Notes under the pieces: model-generated
Database searches by the model: none
What the model was told of the DNA's origin: nothing
Seen by the model: the letters and a program-made list of their open reading frames with translations, nothing else
IMG/VR virus record: IMGVR_UViG_3300028914_000064
Location: 62,092 to 126,091 of that record
From: a virus
Lineage: Duplodnaviria; Caudoviricetes
Strand: one strand, 5' to 3'
Length of the DNA stretch: 64,000 nucleotides
Made by a program: the position numbers and the translations under genes
Part shown: positions 3,647-46,656 of the stretch, in pieces
Numbering within the stretch: the first letter of the stretch is position 1
How the letters are laid out: the number at the start of each line of letters is the position of its first letter

Positions 3647-3883
3647 TTATAATCCCAAAATGCAATAACCTTTTTTCAATCCATATTTAGGGCAATTCCT
3701 TAAAATATAATGGATTGGAAATAGATCTGATTTCCGTCCAGTATATTCTCCATTTGCATATTCATAAAAGCATAATAGATCCCCAACTTTATATTCTCTA
3801 TCATCTTTTCGTAATTCAAAACGTTTCTTTCCGAGAAGTACATCATCATAATATTTTGGATGTAATTTTAATTCATGAAGCAT
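3647..3883 (-). CDS. ASCH/PUA-like (DUF3850-type) protein
   Basis: HELKLHPKYY...GKKRFELRKDDREYKVGD...GYCILG. Confidence 0.8.
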   Translation of the reverse strand: MLHELKLHPKYYDDVLLGKKRFELRKDDREYKVGDLLCFYEYANGEYTGRKSDLFPIHYILRNCPKYGLKKGYCILGL

Positions 3884-6800
3884 TTATTTAGTCCTTCCTA
3901 TTGTTTTTTCAAACTTTTCCCATAATTCACCGCAGTTTTTATGATATGTCGATACTTCTTCTTCGGTATAACATTTAATTACTACACCTTGGACATTATG
4001 CCAAATATCTCCGCGCCAATGTTTTTTGACAAGCTTATAATAATCTCTTTTTTCCATTATTCATCTCCATGCATATGTTTTATTATTTCGTTTATTTGTG
4101 GAAAGTAGCGCCCTGTCTTTTTGACTTTATGTTTCTCGGTTCTAAGTAATCCGTCCATATATTCTGACAATACCAAGATTGTTTCTTTATTTGCTTCAGC
4201 AATCACGATTCCTTTGCAATTTAATTGTGGAACATCTACTTCATCTCCAATCTTGATTTCATCTTCATACTGACTTTTCTCTAGCGATTTATAATAATCA
4301 TTAATTTTGGTTATTGCTTCTAAAGCTGTAAAAATCATAAATATCTCATAGGCAGAAAGATTGCCAAAGATTGCAATTACCCCATCTATTCCGATACCAC
4401 CATCTGTTTTGCTAAGCACAATCTTCCTTGCACATTCCCAAGCATCATTAAGACCTCGTTCATACGCATATACTGCATTTTTACGCTGATTACTATCGGC
4501 TTCTTCATATCCTTCTCTTCTTGCTCTCTTACATACATTAGCAAGGGCATTCATGATTTCTTCTTTATAATTCATTTTTTGGCTCCAGTTCTGATAATAG
4601 GTTGTCTATTTCATACTCAATATCATCTAAATCAACAATCCAAGTAGGCTCTTTGTCACAAAAACACACTGTGCTTTCAGGTTCCTCATAGGAATGATTT
4701 TTTAACTTGGTTTTTAATTCTTCGAGATAGGGCTTAACTATCTTCTGTTCTGTGATTTCATTCGCTTCTTCAATAATATCTCTAACAGTATTTTCATACT
4801 TGGGGTGGTTAATGTCATAATCAAGAATATCTCCGTACTCTCTTAACATCATTGCTTTATCTATGAATTCACGCTTTGCCATCTTCTTCAACCTCCTGCA
4901 ATACATCGTCTATATTTTCTCTCACTTCGCGCAACCACGCTCTTGCATCTGTTCTAGCTTTGTCCACGCTATTTTCATACGTTTCAAGCTCTGCCACCCT
5001 TACGATGTCTAAAATTAATTCAAGTGTTAGGCTTTCTAATTCTTTCATGCGTTCAAAGGCTCTATTGTCGCAATTTGTTTCGCCAACAGGCAGTATGCTA
5101 CCACCATTTAGCTTTTTAACTATTTCATAGAGATTGAAATTTTTCTCCATTTCTACATCCTCCTTTTTCTTCTTGATTATCTTCGCTTTTAACCCAATTA
5201 GGGCAATCTTTACAGTTCCAATCTGCTTCACAAATATATGGTTTTAAAGGTTCGTCATATATACAAGCCATCACTCCCACCCCTTTATCTTCTTGATTAT
5301 CTCTTTAACCCAATCGGGCAACGCGCATTTCCACATAGGCACGTCAAACTCATAATTGAAACAACAGCCGCAGTCCTCACACTCTCCCTCGTATGAGTAG
5401 CTATCCCAACTCATAGGGCAATTTTCGCAACATCTGTCTATTCCGTAGTGCTTCTTTTGCTTGCCGTTTTTTACTTCGTTCCAACTGAATAGTTCTAAAA
5501 CACCAATTCTCATTTTCCCCGTCCTCCTTACCATATGCATACATTGCCGTAATATTCGTCACACGCGTAATCCTCTTCAAAATCAATAGCACTAATTTTG
5601 TTTATAATATATTTTCTATCTATCAATTCACAATTTGTCATCTATATGCTCCTTAAGTTTACATTCATCTGTACCTTTAAAAGACATAAATGATATGTTC
5701 TTTATCGTTGGATGGCTATTTAGGTCTCTAACAAGTTGACCTCTAAAACAATTTCGGGGACAATCTTTGTTGTAATCTATACAATGAGAATAATCATGAT
5801 TCATTTTTTATTCCTCTTTTATTAATTCCAATCTTTATTCCATCCGCTTCCAAAAACTTTTTTACCATGTTCATATATAATTTCTTTGTCAAATTCTTCT
5901 CCTGAAACAGATCTATTATACTCAAAAGCTTTTGTGCTTTGATCGAGTATATAATCTTCACAAGAAAACATACATTTAAGTTTATTTTTCATTTTTCCTT
6001 CTTCATGATTAAATCTATTGCAGTTTTTACATTTTTCTATAGGATATTTATATTCTTCCATTCTTTTTTCTCTTATTCTTTTAATATATAAAAATCTATT
6101 TCTTCAAAAAGATGTTTGCAAGCTAGATGATATCCTTTGTCGATTGCATTGAGAGGTTCCCCTCCATTATCATCGTCACGAACCTGCATCCTTCTTCTTA
6201 GTTTATCGGGTATATCAACTTTTTCGTGTTTAGAGGAAAATCCTAATAACACTTTAGTATAGTAGAGTGCTGTGTTTAGGACTTCCTCTTAAACGTTATT
6301 TAGTTGATATTTTTGTTATCCCTCACCTTCACTTATATAAACTATCCTTTAATTTTTATAGGTTGTAATCCTTTATCGTTTAACGGTTTTTTGTATGGCT
6401 CAAAGTTTTCTGATAACGATTCTTTTGTTATCTCTAACCATTCACCCTTTTCGTTCTCCAAACGAATAGTGTCATAAGCTCCTACCATTCTAAATTCTGA
6501 TGTGTCTTGCTCCCATACAGAATCCTTATCAATATTTGTGTAACTATTGTCAATTGAAAAACCATTATCATCATAATTCTGTACTGAGAATGGTTTTACG
6601 CATTTGTACTTATTATTCATATCTTTACTTCTCCTTATCTGTCAAAATGTTTTTACAAAATTTCGTAAACACACTAAAGTTTACATATCCCTATTTTATT
6701 TCCATTTCTTTCCCTTTCATCAATCCATAGCACAGCTTCATCAGCATTATGAAAAAGTTTCATTTTTGTGCCTTTATCATAGCTAACTGAAATCATAGAT

Positions 6801-15507: not shown

Positions 15508-15717
15508 TCATTCTTTTCCATTGTGTGTATGTTTACTTGCCATACATGCAAGATAATGGATATCTTTTGTTGGCGAAATTCCTTTGCTTCCACAAAAAGG
15601 GCATTGATGCTCTTCTACTTCGGAATTATAAAGTTTTCGCTTAACTATGATCGTTTCGTTCCAATAGAATTGAGATTTACATCTTGAGCAGATGCATTTA
15701 ATCTTGCTATCGTCCAT
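15508..15717 (-). CDS. Small zinc-ribbon protein, first gene of replication operon
   Basis: CSRC...CPFCG; AGGAG RBS. Confidence 0.7.
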   Translation of the reverse strand: MDDSKIKCICSRCKSQFYWNETIIVKRKLYNSEVEEHQCPFCGSKGISPTKDIHYLACMASKHTHNGKE

Positions 15718-35431: not shown

Positions 35432-36461
35432 CTTCTACGCCTCCTTTGATAATATTCTCAAGCTCATCTAAATCTTCTTTGCTTATGTTGCACCCATAAG
35501 CATATTGGATTTCTTTTGCTGTTTGCTTTGCTAAAACAATTCTTGTTTTGCCATTAAAGTGACTCTCTCCATCACCTAAACCATTGCAACGTGCTATTGT
35601 ATTAGCAATATACATTTCATCGCAAATCCCATTTATAGAAAATCTTTTTACAATTGCCTTTGCTTTGTCTGAGATTTCTTTTGGTGGTTCTTGGACAAGC
35701 TCTTGCTCATCATCGTTTCCATACTCTCTCTTATACCAATTATGAGTTTCTTTATATCCGATATCATAGCTTTCTTTATCTTGATAAAGTGTAAGCGTTG
35801 TATCACCTTCACAATACGTGTAAATTAAAAACTCTTCGTTGTTGTAAGCATAATAACTATAGCCATTTGTATAATCTCCATACTTACAATTAAGTTTTTC
35901 TATTTCACTTGCTCCATGATTGGTAAAGCCACGCAACATATAATTTCCATTTCTATCGGTATCTTCTTCGTCAAACAAAATATTGATAACTTTACAAGTG
36001 TTTGGTTTGAGTTGTTTGAATCTACTCAAATCTAAAGGGTCAATCGTCACGGCATCTAAATCTGCCTTGTACATTTCAATCGTATATTTAGGATCTTTAT
36101 GTACTTTGCTTGCAAGTTCTTGCATATAATGTTTATAATCATTCCTTTTCATTTGGTATCTCCTTTCCATACTTTATTAGATTTACAAGTTTTTCGTCCC
36201 ACCCCCTATCTTGAGCGCAATCAAATATTGATTCTTCATCAACTTCAATATGCAGTTCGTCATTGTCATCAATCCAAGCGCAAAAAGCATAGTCGTTTAT
36301 TTGAAAACACACTCTGATTCCTTCATTTTTGGTTTCATATGCCGTAATCATCTTGAAATCATCATCAAATCCTTCTATGTCTATGTTCGCTACGAATCTG
36401 TTCAAGAACGCATCAATGATTCTTTGAGTCTCTTGTATAAACATTTCTTATCTCCTTTACT

Positions 36462-36489
36462 AAAAAAGACTATCTTGATAGATAGTCTT
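36462..36489 (-). terminator. Intrinsic terminator
   Basis: AAGACTATCT-TGAT-AGATAGTCTT with minus-strand U tract. Confidence 0.7.
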
Positions 36490-36496
36490 AGTCTTT

Positions 36497-36826
36497 TTAA
36501 AGCTCTTTTAATTTGTTAAGGTCAAACTTATATAACGGATATAAACAATATCCACTTGGTAATTCTATTCCTGTAAATTCACCAAGTTTATTTTCCTTTA
36601 TGAATTCCACAGCCCATGGACAATTATTTACATCAACAAATGCTTCATTTTTTTCAAGCCCTTTATAATTTAAGTTGACTGTAAGTGTCGCAAATGGCTC
36701 TTCTATTTTCCATTCTTCATTTAGGCTGAATAATTCGATGGCAAGATTATTATCACTACAATACGTACTGATTTCTATTCTTGTTATCTCATATTCCCCA
36801 TAGTTTGTTTTTATTTTCATTTCCAT
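36497..36826 (-). CDS. DUF4313-like protein
   Basis: NNLAIEL...EPFATLTVNL...AFVDVNN...FIKENKLGEFTG...SGYCLYPLYKFD. Confidence 0.75.
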   Translation of the reverse strand: MEMKIKTNYGEYEITRIEISTYCSDNNLAIELFSLNEEWKIEEPFATLTVNLNYKGLEKNEAFVDVNNCPWAVEFIKENKLGEFTGIELPSGYCLYPLYKFDLNKLKEL

Positions 36827-36910
36827 TCTCCTTTCATTGAAACGTATATGAATATTTGATAAAATGCTTATAAGGATTAATGAGTGATGTAATCCTCCTC
36901 GTGACTGGAG

Positions 36911-36940
36911 AAAAGCGTGAGATTTTTATCTCATGCTTTT
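36911..36940 (-). terminator. Terminator-like stem-loop
   Basis: AAAAGCGTGAGAT-TTTT-ATCTCATGCTTTT. Confidence 0.65.
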
Positions 36941-39900
36941 CGTTTTTACCATAATTCATTTGAAAGTACTTCTCTTAGCTCTTCGATTGCTTTTTTTAAG
37001 TCCTTGACTTTTTGATCTACGAGATAATCATTTGTGTATTCGTTCGCTTTATCTAAGACTTCATTTGCATGTGGAAGCAAATACCATAGAGCAAACGAGG
37101 GACATTTAATTTTATCAAGTTCATTTGCTAATTCACAAAATTCTTTTTTCATATCAATCACTCCCACCATCCATTAAATTGTGGCTTATCTTCCTTTTTC
37201 ATAAGATATCCACGTTCTTCGTCATAAAAATATTCATCGCCATTACTCCATTCAAGACATTTCATACCGTCTTTTTCTTTTACAGATACGAGCAGAATTC
37301 CTTGCGTATCCATTTCCATTTCAAGTTCCATACATGCCATATTAAAACTACATTCGCTATAAATCATTCTCAAATTTGTCTTACTATCAAATACAGCTGT
37401 TACAAATTTTCTCATATTATTCTCCTTCAATTACTGTTAAAACATCAATTTCCTTTTCTGTAATTTCCGTTATATCAAAAGTTCCATAATGTACTAAGAC
37501 ATTTCCGCAATTACCACCTACAACAAATTCGTCTGGATAGTATATCCAAGAATGGTCTTTCCGTTCACGGATATTATCTCCATCCCATTCATAATTATTT
37601 TCCATATCAAGTATGTTTCGCCTATCATTTTCAACAAGCCAATCAATAAGTATATCTGTTAATGCTCCATAATCTGTTGTGGGGCGGTCAACTTTTACCA
37701 CATAGCTTTGAAGCCACATAGTACCATTTCCGTAACTGATTTTATAATATGTTGGCATATCAATTCTCCTTTCAAAATACCTTTTTCATTGTTTACATTC
37801 ATATAACGTAGGGTCAACTTCTTCACACCATTCACACTCAAGAATTGGCTCTCCATCTTCTGATATCCACTCTTCCTTTTCTTCGTCGTAATCTATGAAT
37901 TGTTCAATTTGTTCTCCGACATATATTTTTTCTCCTCTGCTTTGTATCGCTTCAATACAGTATTTGCATAATATCATTTTTCTTCCTCCTCAAATTTTAC
38001 AGACCCGGAAAATGCAGCACTTGAAAATCCGTAAACATCACTTACATCGTATCCTCTTCCGTTCGCTTCACTACAATCAATCCATACATCAAATATATCT
38101 TTCGTTGATATCACAACATCATTTTCAAGTTCAATTTCAAGTGTGCTTCCGCCACCGCCCCATATATCATATAGTCCACACATTGCATTTTTAGTGACGA
38201 TGAATTTATTTTCACCTTTCCGTTTGTCATATTCATAATCATCATTTGCTTTTTCATCTGCCTTTATCAACTCTTTTAGCTTAAAGAAATCAAATAACGG
38301 CATCTGAACACAGAAGATAAGTGTGTTCATGTGACTTGTTGCATTAAGAAGTTCATCTCTTACAGAAAGTGTGAACTTTGAAAATTCGTCATCTTTATAA
38401 CTGTTGACCTCTCCTTCTTGCTCAAGCTCTATTATCCGTTTAACTTCTTCGAGCTTACCTTGCTGTTTTGCAAGCCAATAGATTGGTGAGATTTCTTCGA
38501 ATTCTCCACCGTAGAAGTTGAGCATGTTGCATTTCGTAAAGTCATAGTTCATGTCTCCTACATCGAGTGAGACTACAACTTTTGCATTCTTGTTGAAATG
38601 CTCTTCAGGCATGTACCAACTACAATGCTCATCTATCCATTCTCTTACTTCGTTTTCATCATAATCTTCAAGTTCGCTTGTGATAGTTTTATACAATTCT
38701 GGGTAATAATAATCCTCTGCATTTATGCACCATTCACTCATCATATCTTCAAATTCCGTTCGAGGATCTTGAGCTCGTGATATTTTTGTTAGTTCTTCTT
38801 TGCTTAATTCATCATCATAATTGCAGAACACTTCAAACTCAAAGTGGTCTCCATCTCGCTTATCAAAATAACATTTTTCCTCAACTATCTTTTCAATCGT
38901 TTTCATTTTGCGCTCTCCTTTTCTTCAATTTTTTCTTGGATTTTTTTAAGTGCAAGTAATGTTTCGTGGTCATCTGCAAGTTCCTTTGCATCATAATTTC
39001 TGTTGTTAAGCCAAACATTTGTGATTCCTAATTTCGGTTGCTTTTCAAGTATGTTTACAATTGTATCTGTTAAACGTTCAATCTGATTATCAAAAAGCAA
39101 GCTCATGTCAGGAGCTATATCTCCGCTAATCACATGTAATTTCGCTTGCCATTCTAAAAATATTTCGTCTGTTGCATCTGTAAGCGCTTTTATTATTTCG
39201 TTTTTCATATCCATTTCGTTTTTCCCTTTCTTTGTTTCCTTTTTTACATCGATATCACGTACTCCTTCTGCCATTTCCTTTATAAGTTCAAGACTATTTG
39301 TTTCATACAAAAATATGACTTCTGAATCTTTTTCGATTACAAACATATATCGATTTTCATTCGCGGATTCCCTTTTATAAAAATCTTCATATTCTTGCCA
39401 AATATAAACAATAATACTTTCATCCGCGCTTCTCTTTTCTGCGTGAGGGCAAACATCATTGTGCCATGAATTATCTATCCATCCTTTTGGAAGATAAAAA
39501 TCTCCATCATAATTTGGAAATTCAATTAAATATTGCGGTTTTTTTATTCTCACGCTCCATTCTTTTTTCTCCATTGAATATTTGTCTTCGAGAACATCTT
39601 CACGACTTATATCGCAATTATCTGAGGGGAAAGGAAAGTTTTTATTTCCGTTGGTAGAAAGTTTGTTTGCAAGTTCTTTATCATCACGTTTAAGTGCTTT
39701 TACAAAAACCCTTTCTGCATAGGCTTCAAAATGCGTTCCTTCTAAGTCCTCTTGTTCAATAAATTGATTTCTTCCGTTCAATTCTGAACAAAGACCATTA
39801 TCTCCATATTTTATATATCCGCATTCTTTCCCATCTTCGTACAAGCTAAATTCATGCCAATTTCCAATAATGCTTTCTCCGTTGAAATTCCATCCATTCC

Positions 39901-40192
39901 ATTTGGCTGTTATATTACCAACTTCGATTTGTTCTAATATCTCTTTCATGTTACTCATCTCCTTTTTTAGGTAATTGATATACTTCTACAATTGAGTCAT
40001 CAAATATTTCTTCAGTTCCCTTATTGTCCATTATAACAAGCAATTTATCTCCAATATTATAACTTTCCGTTCCGTAAAATGCCCATGAATTTCCTTCTGT
40101 ATCATTACATGTGACAATTTCCGTTTTCGTTTCGATGTTTGCCACTGTCATTAAATTTGGGTAATAAATACCCAATAAGAATAGAGTAATTA

Positions 40193-40477
40193 TTATTCCT
40201 CGCATTTTTCACACTTCCTTTCTGCACGACATATTCCATGCTCTACATCATCGTACATTTCCCTTGAATAATTTGTCGGTCCAATACTTTCATAGTGCTT
40301 GCAACCAATACAACCATCACAGAAGTACATTACGTTTCCCTTTTCCCTTTCTAGCTTTCGCTTATTTTCTTCTGCTTGAAGTATATATTTCCATTTCCCT
40401 TCTTCCTCCTCTTCCATACATCTTTGATATTCTGCTACACATCCATATACTCTTTCTATTCTTGTTAAATCATCCAT
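40193..40477 (-). CDS. Hypothetical protein with C-terminal Cys cluster; likely start MDDLTRIE at 40477
   Basis: GGAAAAGG RBS-like tract; the upstream part of the called 142-aa ORF overlaps a better ORF in another frame. Confidence 0.6.
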   Translation of the reverse strand: MDDLTRIERVYGCVAEYQRCMEEEEEGKWKYILQAEENKRKLEREKGNVMYFCDGCIGCKHYESIGPTNYSREMYDDVEHGICRAERKCEKCEE

Positions 40478-40508
40478 TTTCCTTTTCCCTTTCCCTTCTG
40501 AATTTCCC

Positions 40509-40655
40509 TTACTGATCCACGCCCAAACCGCAACAATTTCTGCATAATTCGTCTTCGTATCCACAATAATCTTCTGCATATGGACATTTATATTCTTTGA
40601 TTTCATTTCCATTTTCGTCATATTTGATTATTGGAATGTCGCATGGTGTATTCAT
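40509..40655 (-). CDS. 48-aa Cys-rich acidic peptide (not in ORF track)
   Basis: MNTPCDIPIIKYDENGNEIKEYKCPYAEDYCGYEDELCRNCCGLGVDQ; AAAGGAGA RBS. Confidence 0.7.
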   Translation of the reverse strand: MNTPCDIPIIKYDENGNEIKEYKCPYAEDYCGYEDELCRNCCGLGVDQ

Positions 40656-40803
40656 ATAATTATCTCCTTTCAATTTGACCATAAAACGTTGTTTCCGTAA
40701 TTTACTATTACTGATATGTCAGATAATTATAAATTGCCTTTTTGTTATTCTGTTACGTTATATGTAGTTTATATATGATTATCATTTCCCTTTAGGAAAT
40801 GTA

Positions 40804-40869
40804 AATGCTCCATGCGGAATCGAACCGCATCACGTGACGCAACGTAACGTGTTTTGCTTTTGGAGCATT
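40804..40869 (-). ncRNA. tRNA-like element lacking a D-arm (3' flank of the large RNA)
   Basis: AATGCTCCA/TGGAGCATT acceptor-like stem; TGCGG-TTCGATT-CCGCA T-arm; CACGTTACG-TTG-CGTCACGTG hairpin. Confidence 0.75.
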
Positions 40870-41925
40870 GGTGACTAACCCATATACAGTCAAGCCGACA
40901 TTTGCTTTCGCTTAAAGTAGTGCTAACGGCTTACTACTTACACACACCCTTTCCCTTCCTTGATTTCCCTCACTCTATTCGGAGCTTCCGTGTGTGTCAC
41001 TGTTTAACGTCAGACTGAGACGGTCATACTCGTGTGCAACGGATTAACATGACATAAACCGTTTATGAGAGCATAAGCTACTCATCCGAGAACTAGTCTT
41101 ACGACATGGGGATTGTTCCATGTCTGCTAAACTGATTACAATACACACTATAGACTTATTCACCTACTCTACGGACACTTTAAGTATTTGCTTGAGACTT
41201 ATTCCTTCACGCTCAAAGAGCTTGGCTCAATCGTACACTTAAAGCACCATGACAGAGTGATTTACTCGTATGGTTATCTGACCCTCTGTCAACGCTGAAT
41301 ACCCTCGAACAAACAGTATCTATACGTGTTTCATAACCTTTTATGACGTTCGGCTGTGTCAATCGCCTACTTCGTATTTTCCACGGAGTACTTTAACATA
41401 GCATATCTTACGCGCAACCACTTTTCTTCTCGCGTTATCATCCGCCCACATTTGGCAACGTGTGTTGAGACCTACTTAACCGTGGGACGAGCACTCATAC
41501 TCGCCGTGCCACTATCTTTAGCCCTTCTCCTAAGCTATGCTTAGAAGGTGCTACGTGCTACTTACTAATCCACTCGATGAAGCGTTGCCACGCTCACATC
41601 TTGCTGTTAGCTCATCTATAGACGTGTATCACAACTACGCTTACCTCCTTTCATCGTCTTATATTCGGACTCACGTTAATAATCACAGTAGGTGTATCTG
41701 CTACGTTTTCTCGCTTGTTCGTGACGGTTATACTGCGTTTATCGTGTTGTGCTTACTTGAGATATCTTGTATCCCTCTCGCCTTTATCCTCGAGCGAACA
41801 CTGACTAACCTTTATAGTTATAGAGTTTTATTTGTATGTGGAATGCTACATACGGAGCTACGTTGGTATCGGTTACGTATCAAACCTCTTTTATACAAGT
41901 GCCTAACGTTACTTGTGGAACGTAA
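40870..41925 (-). ncRNA. Putative giant structured non-coding RNA (~1.05 kb)
   Basis: No credible ORF; GC ~40-50% in sampled lines vs ~25-30% in flanks; more than 12 helices, several with G-U pairs favouring the minus strand; flanked by two tRNA mimics. Confidence 0.72.
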
Positions 41926-41971
41926 TTTGCGCTACGGAATCGAACCGTATAAATGCCCTTTACAACGCAAA
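41926..41971 (-). ncRNA. 46-nt tRNA minihelix-like element (5' flank of the large RNA)
   Basis: TTTGCGT/GCGCAAA 7-bp acceptor stem stacked on TACGG-TTCGATT-CCGTA T-arm with a 15-nt linker. Confidence 0.75.
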
Positions 41972-41995
41972 AAAAGAAGTGATTAAAAAAAATCC

Positions 41996-42025
41996 AAAAA
42001 TAGAAGGGCTTTTTAGCCCTTCTAT
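41996..42025 (-). terminator. Intrinsic terminator after first early gene
   Basis: ATAGAAGGGCT-TTTT-AGCCCTTCTAT perfect stem with minus-strand U tract. Confidence 0.75.
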
Positions 42026-42034
42026 GCCATTTTT

Positions 42035-42472
42035 TTAATTTTTGTTATAATTCATTGCTTTATCTCGCCCTTTTTGTACCCATTCTTTAGGAACGACAAG
42101 CCCTATACCTTTATGCTCTTTTTCAGTCCCTTCTTTAAAAATCATTGTTCTTGTTTCAAGTTTTTTAAACTGTGCTAACGTCCCACACCAAGCACCTTTG
42201 CGGTTATTATCACGTAAAGCAGTGTTCCAAAAAAAGCCAACGGATTTAATTAACTCTTTAGCGCCATTCCGTCCGTCGCCATAGCCAAGCAAAAAAGCTT
42301 TTTGCCCTTTAACTGTTACCATCTCGAGTTCTATACACTCTTCTTTAAGCTCTTTAACGATAGGTTGTTTGACTTTGGTTTTAGTTCCTAGTTTAATAAG
42401 TGCTTGTAATAATTCGTCCCTCTCATCATCAGTAAGTAACATTATGCTTCCTAACAATTCAAGTTTGTTCAT
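42035..42472 (-). CDS. First early gene, hypothetical (KE.IK..GF.W...K.AW motif)
   Basis: 145-aa ORF with GGAAGGTGG RBS; AKELIKSVGFFWN...KGAWCG. Confidence 0.75.
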   Translation of the reverse strand: MNKLELLGSIMLLTDDERDELLQALIKLGTKTKVKQPIVKELKEECIELEMVTVKGQKAFLLGYGDGRNGAKELIKSVGFFWNTALRDNNRKGAWCGTLAQFKKLETRTMIFKEGTEKEHKGIGLVVPKEWVQKGRDKAMNYNKN

Positions 42473-42558
42473 AATAAAACCACCTTCCTAGCTGTTTAAC
42501 AGCTTTAAAAATATAAAATTATAAAAGTTCAAAGTAGTGACAAAGCACCACAGCCACT

Positions 42559-42586
42559 AGTTTAAATCGACAATAAAAAATGTCAA
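42559..42586 (-). promoter_or_regulatory. Candidate sigma-A promoter of the early (leftward) arm
   Basis: TTGACA (42586-42581), 16-nt spacer, TAAACT (42564-42559). Confidence 0.55.
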
Positions 42587-42925
42587 AAAATGGCTAGTTT
42601 TGGACGCAAAAAAAAATGGCTTATTTTAGGCGTTTTTGAGGGGGGTATTAAAAACAACTAAGATCCAGGCTATTTCTAGTTTTAGAAATGCTGATAAATC
42701 TACACACATTATCGATAATCTGTTCGATAATAATCAGATGATGACAAATAAGTGAGATTAATCTAGATTTAATTGTCTATAAAATAATAGATAAATAATA
42801 CATAATACAGTCAATAACAAAGAATTAATACGAAAGCGATTAATAAAATTAAATTTTTATATTATAATATATTCTATACTCTTATTCTTATTAATAAGAA
42901 TAATTATATTATTTGACTCCAAATA

Positions 42926-43744
42926 ATGGGTTGTTATTCCCCAATTATGAAAGGCGACTCAATGATGCCTATACCAAATGAAATAATTAAAAATCCAAAT
43001 CTTAGTGATGATGCAATTTTAGCGTATGTTTTTATTAAGATACATACTTATAGTACGTTTTATGAAAGCTGCCTATTTACAACTCCTCATATAGTAGATC
43101 AGATACAGGGGTATACGAACTCTCATAGTGTATTTTGTAAAACAACGAGAGCTATTGAAGAACTTGCTGAGAATAAAGTGCTTGAGATAGCCAGAGAAGA
43201 TACAACAAATTGGAGGATATTTATGCAATCCTTTAAACCGATAAAAGGCAAATATGTGTTAGTACAGCCGGAAGCATTAAGGAGCATAATGGATTGCAGG
43301 GCAAGAGGAAAAGCAACGATATTGAGATACTATCTACTTCTTCTTGCAAATATTTCCCCATCAAGGAAAGTATGTATAAAGGAAGAAGGATGGTTTGCGA
43401 AACAGTTGAACATATCATCAAAGAGTATCGCAACATACAACGAATATTTAGAAAATCTTAAATTGATTTATATTTATAGGCCGGCAGAAATGTATTTGAG
43501 TAATGTTTATGGAAGATATGAGCATAAAAAATACGTAGACCAGGAAGGGGCGAAGATTTGTTCTCGTAAAAGAAGATTTGAAAAGGCTAATGAAAAACGG
43601 AAATATGCTGCAATGTATAGATGTGCTATTAGCGGATATCCATATAATAGAGATATACTGATAGACATAGTAGATCATTTAGATGATAGATATGACTCAT
43701 CTTTTTTGATTGATAAAATTAAAGAAATGGAGGATATTGGTTAA
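42926..43744 (+). CDS. Winged-helix DNA-binding / replication-initiator-like protein
   Basis: IPNEIIKNPNLSDDAILAY N-terminus; FAKQLNISSKSIATYNEYLENLKLIYI wHTH; follows an AT-rich intergenic region. Confidence 0.55.
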   Translation: MGCYSPIMKGDSMMPIPNEIIKNPNLSDDAILAYVFIKIHTYSTFYESCLFTTPHIVDQIQGYTNSHSVFCKTTRAIEELAENKVLEIAREDTTNWRIFMQSFKPIKGKYVLVQPEALRSIMDCRARGKATILRYYLLLLANISPSRKVCIKEEGWFAKQLNISSKSIATYNEYLENLKLIYIYRPAEMYLSNVYGRYEHKKYVDQEGAKICSRKRRFEKANEKRKYAAMYRCAISGYPYNRDILIDIVDHLDDRYDSSFLIDKIKEMEDIG

Positions 43745-44032
43745 ATGAGTGGAACAAGTAATCTTAATCCTAAGGAAGCTTTTCAGGAGCTATTGCTCCA
43801 AGAACAATTGGTAAATAATGCTGTAGATATTCAAGCCCTTTTGAGAATGCTAATTGATAAAAAATTGATTACAAGGGAAGATGTTTCCAAGTATCGTAAT
43901 GAAGTTAGATCTAGTCCTAAATATGCAAATGCAATCAATACCATTGAATCTCAGAAAAAAATATATGAAAAAGCAATAGACAATCCCCAAGAATATCTTA
44001 AGGCATTATTTAAAGCAAAACTTGATAGATAA
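43745..44032 (+). CDS. Hypothetical protein
   Basis: 95-aa ORF with GGAGG RBS. Confidence 0.7.
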   Translation: MSGTSNLNPKEAFQELLLQEQLVNNAVDIQALLRMLIDKKLITREDVSKYRNEVRSSPKYANAINTIESQKKIYEKAIDNPQEYLKALFKAKLDR

Positions 44033-44043
44033 AGGAGAGAAAT

Positions 44044-46656
44044 ATGTCACAGTATGGTCTTCGTATCATGAATTTTGAAGCTGCTTCTATTTATGAATAC
44101 ATGAATGGTTTTCGTGATAGACTTGATTCTACGAAAGCAATGTTGGTCAATAGCCTTTTTTTAGATTTTTTATTAGATAATGATTTGCTAATAATCTCCC
44201 AAGGAGATTTTACAAGAAGCATAATTTGTCTTCAATTTGGATATGGTACAAAAGACTATGAGACAATGAAAAAGAGATTGATTGGTAAAGAAGAGGAACA
44301 TTTTAAAACTATCCTTTCAAATATTGAAAAGAATAAAGATAAATGCGTTAAAATTTCAAAAGAAGATCTAAGAGTTAAATATTATACTGAAGGCGTAACA
44401 ATTACTTATAAGACTTTTACTAAAAATGGCAAAGAACTTAAGAACAGAAGAAATACCATCCATTATAAGATGCTATATAGGACTCCCGGTAAAGCAAAAA
44501 AAGGAACCTGTATGTTTATAGATTCTAGGATATATGATAAAGTTCATAATTTTCTTTATATGGGAATTAAATTGCCTATTGAAAGAGCTCCAATTGTTGA
44601 AATGGGAGCTTACTCTTCGCTCATAACAAGTTCTATTATTGGACGAGTAAAAATTCTTCCGGAAGAAATTTTAATTTTAAAAGATATTGACTCTATTTTT
44701 AAAACAAAAGTTTTATCTGTGGAAACTGATGAAAACAAAAAAACATTTATCAAGGAGAAAGAGAATTATGAAGTAATTAATACTCTCTTCGATGGACAAG
44801 CTCTTATTGATGAATCCATCTTTCCGGAGTGGGCAGATGGGTATGTCTTATTGCGTCATCATATGACTAAAGTTGCGGCATTTAAAACAAGACTTCAAAA
44901 ATTTTTTAAGGATTATTATGGTACAGATTATGAAAATGCAAAAGTCAAAGATATGTTTGGTAGGATTGTTAAAATTAAAGATGTGAAATTAGTCACAACT
45001 GATAATGCCATCAAATGGAAAAAATTTGGAGTTGGATTTGATTATTGGGCTTCATGGGTTAGACGTAATGGATGTCAATTTGGGATAGTTAAGACATCAC
45101 ATGAATCTAAGCTTGGAGATGTGCAGCGTATGAGTTATCAGATGATGAATTCGCTCGATATTGAATCTATGCCAAGTGTTTGTAGTAAAACTGTAGAATA
45201 TATAAACAATCTTAAAAACAATGACGAGATTTTTTTAGATTTCTTGGAAAAAAATAAAAATTTTGCAAATGATTTTGAAGTTTTGATTGCGCTTTATAGG
45301 CACAATTCAGATTTTTCAAAAAGCGCATATTTTAGAGAACGTAGGCAAGCCATAATAAATTCATATGTTTTAAATTTCAAAAATGGACATAGTATACAAA
45401 ATGCAGATAACTTAACGATTGTAGGCTCTCCTTATGCTCTTCTGCTCCATTCAGTAAATGAGGATCCATTTAGCGATCCTACTCTTCGTCCAGAAGAAGG
45501 AACAATACAATGTTATACTGAACGTTTTGAGGATGGAGAATATCTTGCTGCATTTAGGTCTCCTCATAATTCTAGAAATAATATTGTTTATCTTCATAAT
45601 AAGAAACATGAATTGTTGAAGAAATATTTTGATTTGGGGAATTATTGTATAGCTGTGAATATGATCGAAACAGATTTCCAATCAAGGGCAAATGGAGCGG
45701 ATCAGGATTCAGATACTATATATACAACAAACCAAAAAGAAATAGTAGAACATGCAAAAAGATGTTATATAGATTATCCGACTATTGTAAATAACATTCC
45801 GAAAGATGCAAATATCTATAATTATGATATGAGAGATTTTGCATTGGTTGATAATAGTCTTGCGGCTTCTCAGCTTGCGATTGGAGAATCTTCTAACTTG
45901 GCTCAGATTGCTTTAACATACACTTATAATTTTGAAGATAGAAAATATTCCGATTATGTTTGCATTTTAGCTGTATTAGCGCAGGTTGCTGTAGATAGTT
46001 CAAAAAGGCGTTTCGATATTTCTTTGTCCGAAGAAATATCCAGGATAAAAAAAGATATGGATATTACGGAAAACGGACTCCCCTTTTTTTGGCTTATAAC
46101 TAAAAGAGATAAACGAAAAGTGCATTCTGATGAACAAAGAAAAGAACGTGATCGAATAAATAAAATAAAAATCAAGAAGAAAATCGAACCATCATTAGAT
46201 TGTCCAATGAATTATCTTTACCGATTAAGACTCGATCGGACAAAGTATGATTCTCCTTCTTTACCGATGGATAATTTTTGGATAAGACATGATATTGAAA
46301 ATGGTCGCCGTAAATCAAGACTTGTAGAGAATCTTATTGAAAAATATTCTCTTAGACTTTATAACTACAACGCCGCAGATGAAAAGGATTCTTCTGATTA
46401 TCTTTTGCTTAGAGAAGATTTTGATGAGCTCATTTCAGATATACAGAGAATCTATATTTCAAAAAATTACCTTGGAATGATGAGTTGGCTTATCAATAGA
46501 GCTTTTATGATTGGGAGTGGGGTTCAACAGAATAAGAATAGTCTTAGCTCAAAATTATATAAGAATAGAGCTTTGTTACTTAAAGTACTATATATTGTAT
46601 CTCCAGAAGTTTTTTTACAATGTTTTGTAGAAAAGTGTACACCTAAACAAGAATAG
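44044..46656 (+). CDS. yonO: YonO-like single-subunit DNA-dependent RNA polymerase
   Basis: 870 aa; YKMLYRTPGKAKKG, LFDGQALID, LLRHHMTK, QRMSYQM, AFRSPHN and catalytic GADQDSD (DxDxD); sits upstream of the structural genes. Confidence 0.9.
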   Translation: MSQYGLRIMNFEAASIYEYMNGFRDRLDSTKAMLVNSLFLDFLLDNDLLIISQGDFTRSIICLQFGYGTKDYETMKKRLIGKEEEHFKTILSNIEKNKDKCVKISKEDLRVKYYTEGVTITYKTFTKNGKELKNRRNTIHYKMLYRTPGKAKKGTCMFIDSRIYDKVHNFLYMGIKLPIERAPIVEMGAYSSLITSSIIGRVKILPEEILILKDIDSIFKTKVLSVETDENKKTFIKEKENYEVINTLFDGQALIDESIFPEWADGYVLLRHHMTKVAAFKTRLQKFFKDYYGTDYENAKVKDMFGRIVKIKDVKLVTTDNAIKWKKFGVGFDYWASWVRRNGCQFGIVKTSHESKLGDVQRMSYQMMNSLDIESMPSVCSKTVEYINNLKNNDEIFLDFLEKNKNFANDFEVLIALYRHNSDFSKSAYFRERRQAIINSYVLNFKNGHSIQNADNLTIVGSPYALLLHSVNEDPFSDPTLRPEEGTIQCYTERFEDGEYLAAFRSPHNSRNNIVYLHNKKHELLKKYFDLGNYCIAVNMIETDFQSRANGADQDSDTIYTTNQKEIVEHAKRCYIDYPTIVNNIPKDANIYNYDMRDFALVDNSLAASQLAIGESSNLAQIALTYTYNFEDRKYSDYVCILAVLAQVAVDSSKRRFDISLSEEISRIKKDMDITENGLPFFWLITKRDKRKVHSDEQRKERDRINKIKIKKKIEPSLDCPMNYLYRLRLDRTKYDSPSLPMDNFWIRHDIENGRRKSRLVENLIEKYSLRLYNYNAADEKDSSDYLLLREDFDELISDIQRIYISKNYLGMMSWLINRAFMIGSGVQQNKNSLSSKLYKNRALLLKVLYIVSPEVFLQCFVEKCTPKQE

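Follow-up and report, generated by a model that had tools for sequence, protein, structure and literature searches.

The minus strand of a phage genome fragment carries a 46-nt tRNA-like minihelix, built from an acceptor stem and a T-arm, at the 5′ boundary of a structured non-coding RNA of about 1.06 kb, and a second, larger tRNA-like element lies at the other end of the same RNA. Judging from sequence and its conservation, we give about an even chance to the reading that host RNase P and RNase Z use the 5′ minihelix at this boundary as a tRNA-like processing signal. The window, by which we mean the whole 64,000-nt stretch of DNA that was analysed, comes from an IMG/VR phage record of 126 kb with an estimated completeness of 67%. 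In the direction of the minus strand the features of the locus are as follows, and we refer to the two tRNA-like elements as the 5′ and 3′ mimics.

42035–42472, minus strand: upstream protein gene of 145 aa, the first gene of the minus-strand arm (taken from the ORF list)
42000–42025, minus strand: intrinsic terminator-like hairpin of 11 bp with a U-tract, directly upstream of the minihelix
41972–41999, minus strand: U-rich spacer of 28 nt, a putative 5′ leader, with U at position −1
41965–41971, minus strand: acceptor-stem 5′ strand UUUGCGU, partner of 41926–41932, with compensatory changes in relatives
41950–41964, minus strand: linker of 15 nt that replaces the D and anticodon arms, with a weak hairpin
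41945–41949, minus strand: T-stem 5′ strand UACGG, with covariation
41938–41944, minus strand: T-loop UUCGAUU of 7 nt; the loops of relatives are all within the T-loop consensus UUCRA or YGNRA
41933–41937, minus strand: T-stem 3′ strand CCGUA, with covariation
41926–41932, minus strand: acceptor-stem 3′ strand GCGCAAA, contiguous with the T-stem, with covariation
41925, minus strand: discriminator-like unpaired U, followed by UAC and not CCA
40868–41924, minus strand: body of the structured non-coding RNA of about 1.06 kb, 1,057 nt between the two mimics
40805–40867, minus strand: larger 3′ tRNA-like element with acceptor UGCUCCA/UGGAGCA and T-arm UGCGG-UUCGAUU-CCGCA
40783–40801, minus strand: 7-bp hairpin CAUUUCC/GGAAAUG directly after the 3′ mimic, without a U-tract
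40509–40655, minus strand: first downstream gene, 48 aa, with a ribosome-binding site and a homologous start in L037 and L044

Read from 41971 to 41926 on the minus strand, the 5′ minihelix consists of TTTGCGT, TGTAAAGGGCATTTA, TACGG, TTCGATT, CCGTA and GCGCAAA, followed by T-TAC. The first-pass annotation had described a minus-strand sequence with a 5-bp T-stem and a TTCGA T-loop, lacking the D and anticodon arms as well as an encoded CCA, and our reading of the sequence confirms each of these points: after the acceptor 3′ strand there is one unpaired U and then TAC. The acceptor stem is contiguous with the T-stem, giving a 12-bp coaxial branch that is closed by the 7-nt UUCGAUU loop. The same annotation had called the 7-bp acceptor stem exact. 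Its length holds, but the stem is made of 6 Watson-Crick pairs and one U-G wobble at 7:66, at the inner end. A TAAA/TTTA hairpin, which had been proposed for the linker, can pair, but it would consist of only four A-U pairs and RNAfold favours another pairing of 3 bp. When the isolated 47-mer is folded with RNAfold it does form the minihelix, at −10.8 kcal/mol and z = −1.0. Since 27 of 200 shuffles fold equally well, the stability of the isolated element is unremarkable.

The architecture is a different matter from the stability, and chance does not account for it. Our strict descriptor requires a 7-bp stem with at most one G-U pair, a linker of 6–45 nt, a 5-bp stem with at least three G-C pairs, a 7-nt NNCRANN loop and contiguous 3′ strands, and its null consists of 40 dinucleotide shuffles. 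On the two strands of the window, 128 kb in all, it matches 2 sites, whereas the shuffles average 0.025; with the loop narrowed to TTCRANN it finds 2 against 0. These two sites are the 5′ minihelix and a second element at 40806–40867 on the same strand. Three extra matches of a 7+5 descriptor that accepts any loop (at 15518, 59352 and 63397, plus strand) were rejected as chance, being in coding or AT-rich sequence and having loops that are not T-loops. By the definition of RF00005 and ARAGORN, the 5′ minihelix is not a transfer RNA. ARAGORN predicts 0 tRNA genes in the window, and RF00005, which finds matches in 14 of 14 control genomes, finds none at E ≤ 1 in the 126-kb record. Rfam gives no match in the window at gathering score, the Rfam tRNA model leaves the 5′ minihelix unmatched at E ≤ 10, and the mascRNA-menRNA model has no match at gathering score, nor at E ≤ 10 over 36000–44000.

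The 3′ mimic is the larger of the two elements, with a linker of 31 nt that contains an anticodon-arm-like hairpin. It has a discriminator U and no encoded CCA. A weak Rfam match to tRNA-Sec (21.2 bits, E 1.6) is the only one it has, even at permissive E-values. What it shares with the 5′ mimic is a 13-nt identity that covers the T-arm core only. We observed that its acceptor helix (40805–40869) can be extended to 8–9 bp through paired −1:73 and −2:74 positions, and that the extension is kept by covariation, with A-U/A-U in the window and C-G/A-U in L004 and L006. The 3′ mimic of L056 has an 8+4 arrangement. Such helices resemble the 8/5 and 8/4 branches of tRNA-Sec-like molecules (PMC5389517). 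The hairpin that follows the 3′ mimic is kept in L002, L037, L044 and L055, and shows one-sided changes in the subfamily.

Homologous loci were reached by three routes. The polymerase gene described below led to L002–L006, a conserved internal DNA pattern searched in metagenomes led to L037 and L044, and homologues of the upstream gene led to L055 and L056. With nhmmer we count nine distinct loci, namely the window, L002, L003, L004, L006, L037, L044, L055 and L056, and the RNA polymerase identities across the IMG/VR loci range from 72 to 91%. Other searches added nothing to this set: the whole locus matched none of 50,697 phage records in a blastn comparison, and a search of IMG/VR with the 145-aa upstream protein gave no related loci. 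Scanning viral contigs with the pattern AGATAACC...GTAAATCAC returned 24 loci, among which nhmmer found only already-known contigs to be truly homologous. The same approach in bacterial genome contigs returned 8 pattern matches and 0 true homologues, and so pointed to no host. More distant polymerase relatives (L007, L008 and MT837385) are without the giant RNA.

At each end of the RNA, all nine loci show a T-loop hairpin set into an acceptor-like helix. In the homologous loci that were read, a hairpin and T-run terminator stands 10–30 nt before the 5′ mimic, with the exception of L003. In that locus the two are separated by a 57-codon ORF that has a ribosome-binding site (6430–6610, minus strand) and whose stop codon falls within the acceptor 5′ strand. 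Between the 5′ mimic and the conserved core lies a segment of variable length and content, with an inserted 24-nt hairpin in L037, L044 and L055. A covariance model (R1), which was built from close-subfamily elements and recovers distant elements only at their T-arms, finds exactly 2 copies in the 126-kb record and 2 in a related 124-kb record, flanking the giant RNA in this close subfamily. As there are only two copies and both are at the ends of the RNA, the mimics are not a general punctuation of operons.

The pairing of the stems is supported by covariation. Among the 8 elements of the close subfamily (alignment A3), 96 of 96 cells pair and 8 of the 12 pairs change on both sides. None of 500 shuffles reaches the covariation score or the paired fraction, and as a control, pairing falls to 27–62% when the partner strand is slid by 1–3 columns. 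Covariation of the 7+5 stems among homologues, which had been put forward at the outset as a check, is thus present, with pairing kept through two-sided changes. The G-U pairs are valid on the minus strand only, which fixes the strand. The distant 5′ elements were tabulated with a script anchored on the T-arm; MAFFT (alignment A2) misaligned their acceptor strands. In the family as a whole, the 5′ acceptor strands read TTTGCGT, ATCGCGT, TTCGCGT, TCCGCGT, GGTCTGA, AGTCTAT and AGGTAAC, and those of the distant loci are unrelated in sequence, yet pair with their own partners. The 7/5 layout is exact in the window, L037, L044, L055 and L002, and that of L004 can be extended to 8 bp. L006 and L003 have one acceptor mismatch each in their 5′ elements, and the 5′ element of L056 deviates from the layout through an acceptor of 6 bp and an AA bulge.

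Some positions are more constant than others. The two loop-proximal pairs of the T-stem are G-C in 15 of the 15 tabulated elements, and the G53:C61 pair of tRNAs has its counterpart in these invariant pairs. U73 followed by U is found in six of the eight tabulated 5′ elements, and CCA at 74–76 in none. The linker forms a 5-bp hairpin in L037, L044 and L055, with one compensatory change between L037 and L044. As a separate observation, the linker GGGCGGA of the L056 5′ element (3650–3725, plus strand) is perfectly complementary to TCCGCCC about 50 nt downstream, a pairing that could form a pseudoknot or enclose the T-arm hairpin in an alternative fold.

The sequence of the loop varies among the 5′ elements. 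It is UUCGAUU in the window, UGCAACU in L037, L044 and L055, CGCAAUU in L002, UGCAAAU in L004, UUCGAGA in L006, UUCAAAU in L003 and UUCGAGU in L056, so that five of the nine 5′ elements carry UGCAA or CGCAA instead of UUCRA. The loop of the 3′ element is UUCGAnn at eight of the nine loci and UGCAAUU in L002. All loops fit either UUCRA or YGNRA (15 tabulated elements and three read by eye). These two consensus sequences are those of T-loops in tRNAs and in riboswitches respectively, UGHAA being favoured in the latter, and CGNRA is a natural minority T-loop in which a C-A pair replaces the U-A pair (10.1101/2022.12.26.521914). What homologous loci conserve is the consensus of the T-loop fold. 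The TTCGA sequence emphasised in the first-pass annotation is not conserved. With its stems covarying and its loop fold kept, the structural reading withstands the refuting condition that the same annotation had set, a T-loop lost from homologous loci. Selection appears to act on the T-loop fold, and not on the loop sequence specific to tRNAs.

The RNA between the mimics stands out from its surroundings in composition, with a GC content of 42% for 41001–42000 against about 30–36% in the neighbouring kilobases. A de novo RNAalifold structure of five full-length RNAs has 328 pairs, 49 of them with a compensatory change, and both mimics are self-contained terminal domains in it. No ORF in the giant RNA is conserved among relatives. 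We rejected as a gene the 149-aa antisense ORF at 41537–41986 on the plus strand, which overlaps the minihelix and is absent from relatives. An automatic annotation pipeline would probably predict it wrongly as a gene. Rfam, including its GOLLD and ROOL families, does not match the giant RNA in the window, nor in four homologous loci at E ≤ 1. The giant RNA is apparently an unlisted family with nine loci, restricted to related phage contigs, at least some of which are from the gut (the rumen included). A pairing of the U-rich leader with AAAAGAGG downstream was predicted, but it is not kept in L002 and we rejected it.

The 145-aa upstream protein has no Pfam or PHROG match, and its homologues precede the same RNA in L055 and L056. 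On the minus strand no sigma-70-like promoter was found between 42025 and 41972. On the other side, a run of small genes on the same strand begins about 125 nt past the hairpin that follows the 3′ mimic. Pfam and PHROGs assigned none of ten neighbouring proteins to RNA processing, and searches of the record for a phage-encoded CCA-adding enzyme, an Rnl-type RNA ligase and RtcB came back empty. Circularisation of the giant RNA, which we also considered, is unsupported, as no ligase or RtcB was found. Two kilobases away, a polymerase-like gene of 870 aa (44044–46656, plus strand) starts the opposite arm. Its only family matches are PHROGs of unknown function. At about 25% identity, tblastn finds relatives in Enterocloster phages, one of them annotated as 'RNA-dependent RNA polymerase', and in Clostridium phage c-st. 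The nearest deposited sequence, with 52% identity, is a contig from human faeces that carries no annotation. We found no evidence for a Bacillus phage, and the polymerase is distantly Enterocloster/Clostridium-phage-like, so that the Bacillus subtilis enzymes suggested by the first-pass annotation for cleavage assays would be stand-ins only.

A processing signal is the best-fitting reading of this context, in which there is a terminator upstream without space for a promoter, a partner mimic at the other end, and no mimic elsewhere in the two records of about 125 kb. Within a minus-strand operon the giant RNA immediately follows the first gene's terminator, which leaves no place for a promoter of its own, and it would therefore have to be cut from a longer transcript, possibly a read-through product. 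We propose that this happens in the following way. RNase P, measuring the coaxial 7+5 helix with its T-loop, would cut between U−1 (41972) and U+1 (41971). RNase Z, reading the same shape, would cut after the unpaired U at 41925, because no CCA follows, and the 3′ mimic at 40805–40867 would set the 3′ end of the giant RNA in the same way. These would have to be host enzymes, since the record showed no true tRNA gene and no phage-encoded CCA-adding enzyme, RNA ligase or RtcB. An acceptor/T-arm minihelix is a substrate for RNase P, tRNase Z and the CCA-adding enzyme alike (PMC3714273), with which the earlier description of the 7+5 coaxial half as a substrate shape for these enzymes agrees. The exact 7+5 geometry in the subfamily of the window, the unpaired U−1 and U73 and the lack of CCA also favour a processing signal, as do the covariation of the stems, the invariant loop-proximal G-C pairs and the precedent of GOLLD and ROOL beside tRNA islands. 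We give somewhat less than an even chance to a wider proposal, in which both mimics would serve to mature a new class of ornate phage RNA of kilobase size that has no sequence relationship with GOLLD or ROOL, and would be real tRNAs pared down to the least that host RNase P and RNase Z still recognise.

Several observations count against a processing signal. The UGCAA and CGCAA loops of five of the nine 5′ elements are of the docking type known from riboswitches; the elbow that RNase P contacts is incomplete without a D-loop; the 3′ mimics, with helices of 8–9 bp and −1 paired to 73, depart from the usual form of RNase P and RNase Z sites; the 5′ element of L056 is irregular, with a linker that can pair downstream, and some distant elements have single acceptor mismatches; and the isolated 5′ minihelix is not unusually stable (z = −1.0). 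The main rival reading is that the 5′ minihelix is retained as an end module, with at most the leader trimmed, and serves either for T-loop docking, within the RNA or onto another protomer, or as a 5′ cap against exonucleases. The UGCAA and CGCAA loops match the YGNRA T-loops of riboswitches, which make long-range tertiary contacts and whose favoured full loop is (UGHAA)UU (10.1101/2022.12.26.521914). Furthermore, both mimics have a T-loop of this kind, the 3′ mimic directly adjoins the conserved core with its extended helix of 8–9 bp, and giant phage RNAs form multimeric cages, GOLLD keeping covalently linked tRNAs (10.1101/2024.12.08.627333). Docking would, however, need neither contiguous 7-bp and 5-bp stems nor an unpaired U, yet this geometry is conserved. 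The stretch from the 5′ mimic to the core is variable, with the 24-nt hairpin inserted in L037, L044 and L055, RNAalifold pairs neither mimic with the interior, and no receptor was identified. We regard a retained module as unlikely.

The processing signal was also weighed against two further explanations. The 5′ minihelix might be released as a decoy or regulator and, after CCA addition, titrate a host enzyme or a defence nuclease that reads the acceptor/T-arm half or the CCA end. The minihelix is in principle a substrate for CCA addition (PMC3714273), and it is conserved in phages that have no tRNA genes. Against this, the acceptor sequences differ among the loci, so no identity element is kept, the mimic is found solely at the boundary of the giant RNA and never alone (R1, close subfamily), and Pfam and PHROGs revealed no defence or counter-defence gene beside it. 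The earlier suggestion of a decoy for anticodon nucleases is unsupported, as the element has no anticodon arm and does not mimic their target. We consider a released decoy very improbable. The other explanation is a functionless relic, such as a decayed tRNA gene or one half of an integration site, or a chance resemblance to tRNA. Temperate phages often integrate into tRNA genes, which is the point in favour of a relic. This explanation seems scarcely tenable to us, because pairing is kept by compensatory changes across nine loci that are not near-identical copies (the polymerase identities across the IMG/VR loci being 72 to 91%), and because 2 sites were observed where chance predicts 0.025. 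In addition the element has both acceptor strands, unlike an att core, and the 13-nt identity between the mimics covers nothing besides the T-arm core.

Acceptor/T-arm mimics or RNase P sites that are shaped by host tRNA enzymes are known from the tRNA-like domain of tmRNA and from the C4 RNA of phages P1 and P7. The tmRNA domain is built from the two ends of one RNA and is aminoacylated, while C4 is a small antisense RNA matured by RNase P; to our knowledge neither of them brackets a kilobase-sized RNA. Structured RNAs of kilobase size are rare in bacteria and phages, and for the adjacency to tRNA genes of GOLLD and ROOL, the two phage classes of such RNAs whose structures are solved, we know of no explanation so far. 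Stripped-down tRNA halves around a giant RNA, in a record free of tRNA genes, separate the shape of a tRNA from decoding. If the processing reading is true, the linkage between giant RNAs and tRNAs would reflect a need for end processing by host RNase P and RNase Z, and this could be tested where the flanks have no decoding role. The exact predicted ends are available for making the giant RNA for structural work. The locus also offers a natural case in which T-loops of the tRNA type (UUCGA) and of the riboswitch type (UGCAA, CGCAA) interchange at one site.

Comparison with other described systems shows where the phage elements differ. GOLLD and ROOL lie beside tRNA islands, and the GOLLD linker can carry tRNAs (Kretsch et al., 10.1101/2024.12.08.627333). 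They are, like the giant RNA described here, very large ornate RNAs of phages or prophages linked to tRNAs, but here the neighbours are degenerate minihelices and not decodable tRNAs, and the record has no tRNA genes. In plant mitochondria, t-elements are tRNA-like structures in non-tRNA transcripts that are taken to be cut by RNase P and RNase Z (Forner et al. 2007, PMC1920247). They are likewise acceptor and T-arm mimics that make the 5′ and 3′ ends of neighbouring RNAs, but they are organellar, flank mRNAs and have had their cleavage shown, whereas the phage cuts are inferred. The phage mimics further differ from t-elements in that a pair of them brackets one giant non-coding RNA and in that some of their T-loops are of the YGNRA type. 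In MALAT1, with its mascRNA, and in MEN-beta a tRNA mimic also adjoins a long non-coding RNA, RNase P sets the end of the long RNA, and the small tRNA-like RNA is set free and receives CCA; these mimics, in contrast, are eukaryotic and nuclear, are found at the 3′ end only and are cloverleaf-like with a reduced anticodon arm (PMC8457004). Acceptor/T-arm model substrates used in the laboratory have the same geometry of 7 bp, 5 bp and a 7-nt loop and were cut from real tRNAs (PMC3714273), whereas the phage minihelix is natural, evolves independently and has a short hairpin inserted at the junction. A survey of structured RNAs in IMG/VR mentions tRNA-like candidates only generally (PMC10690425), and our literature search found no publication describing a pair of minihelices around a giant phage RNA.

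We finally note a recurrent module inside the giant RNA, a stem that encloses GGUYWAGAUWACC...GUGAAUCAC (GUAAAUCAC in the window), for which we recognised no match to a known motif. There is one copy in the window (41251–41290, minus strand), four in L003 (5560–6130, minus strand) and three in L056 (4040–4560, plus strand). One of the L003 copies lies within the 3′ tRNA-like element of that locus.
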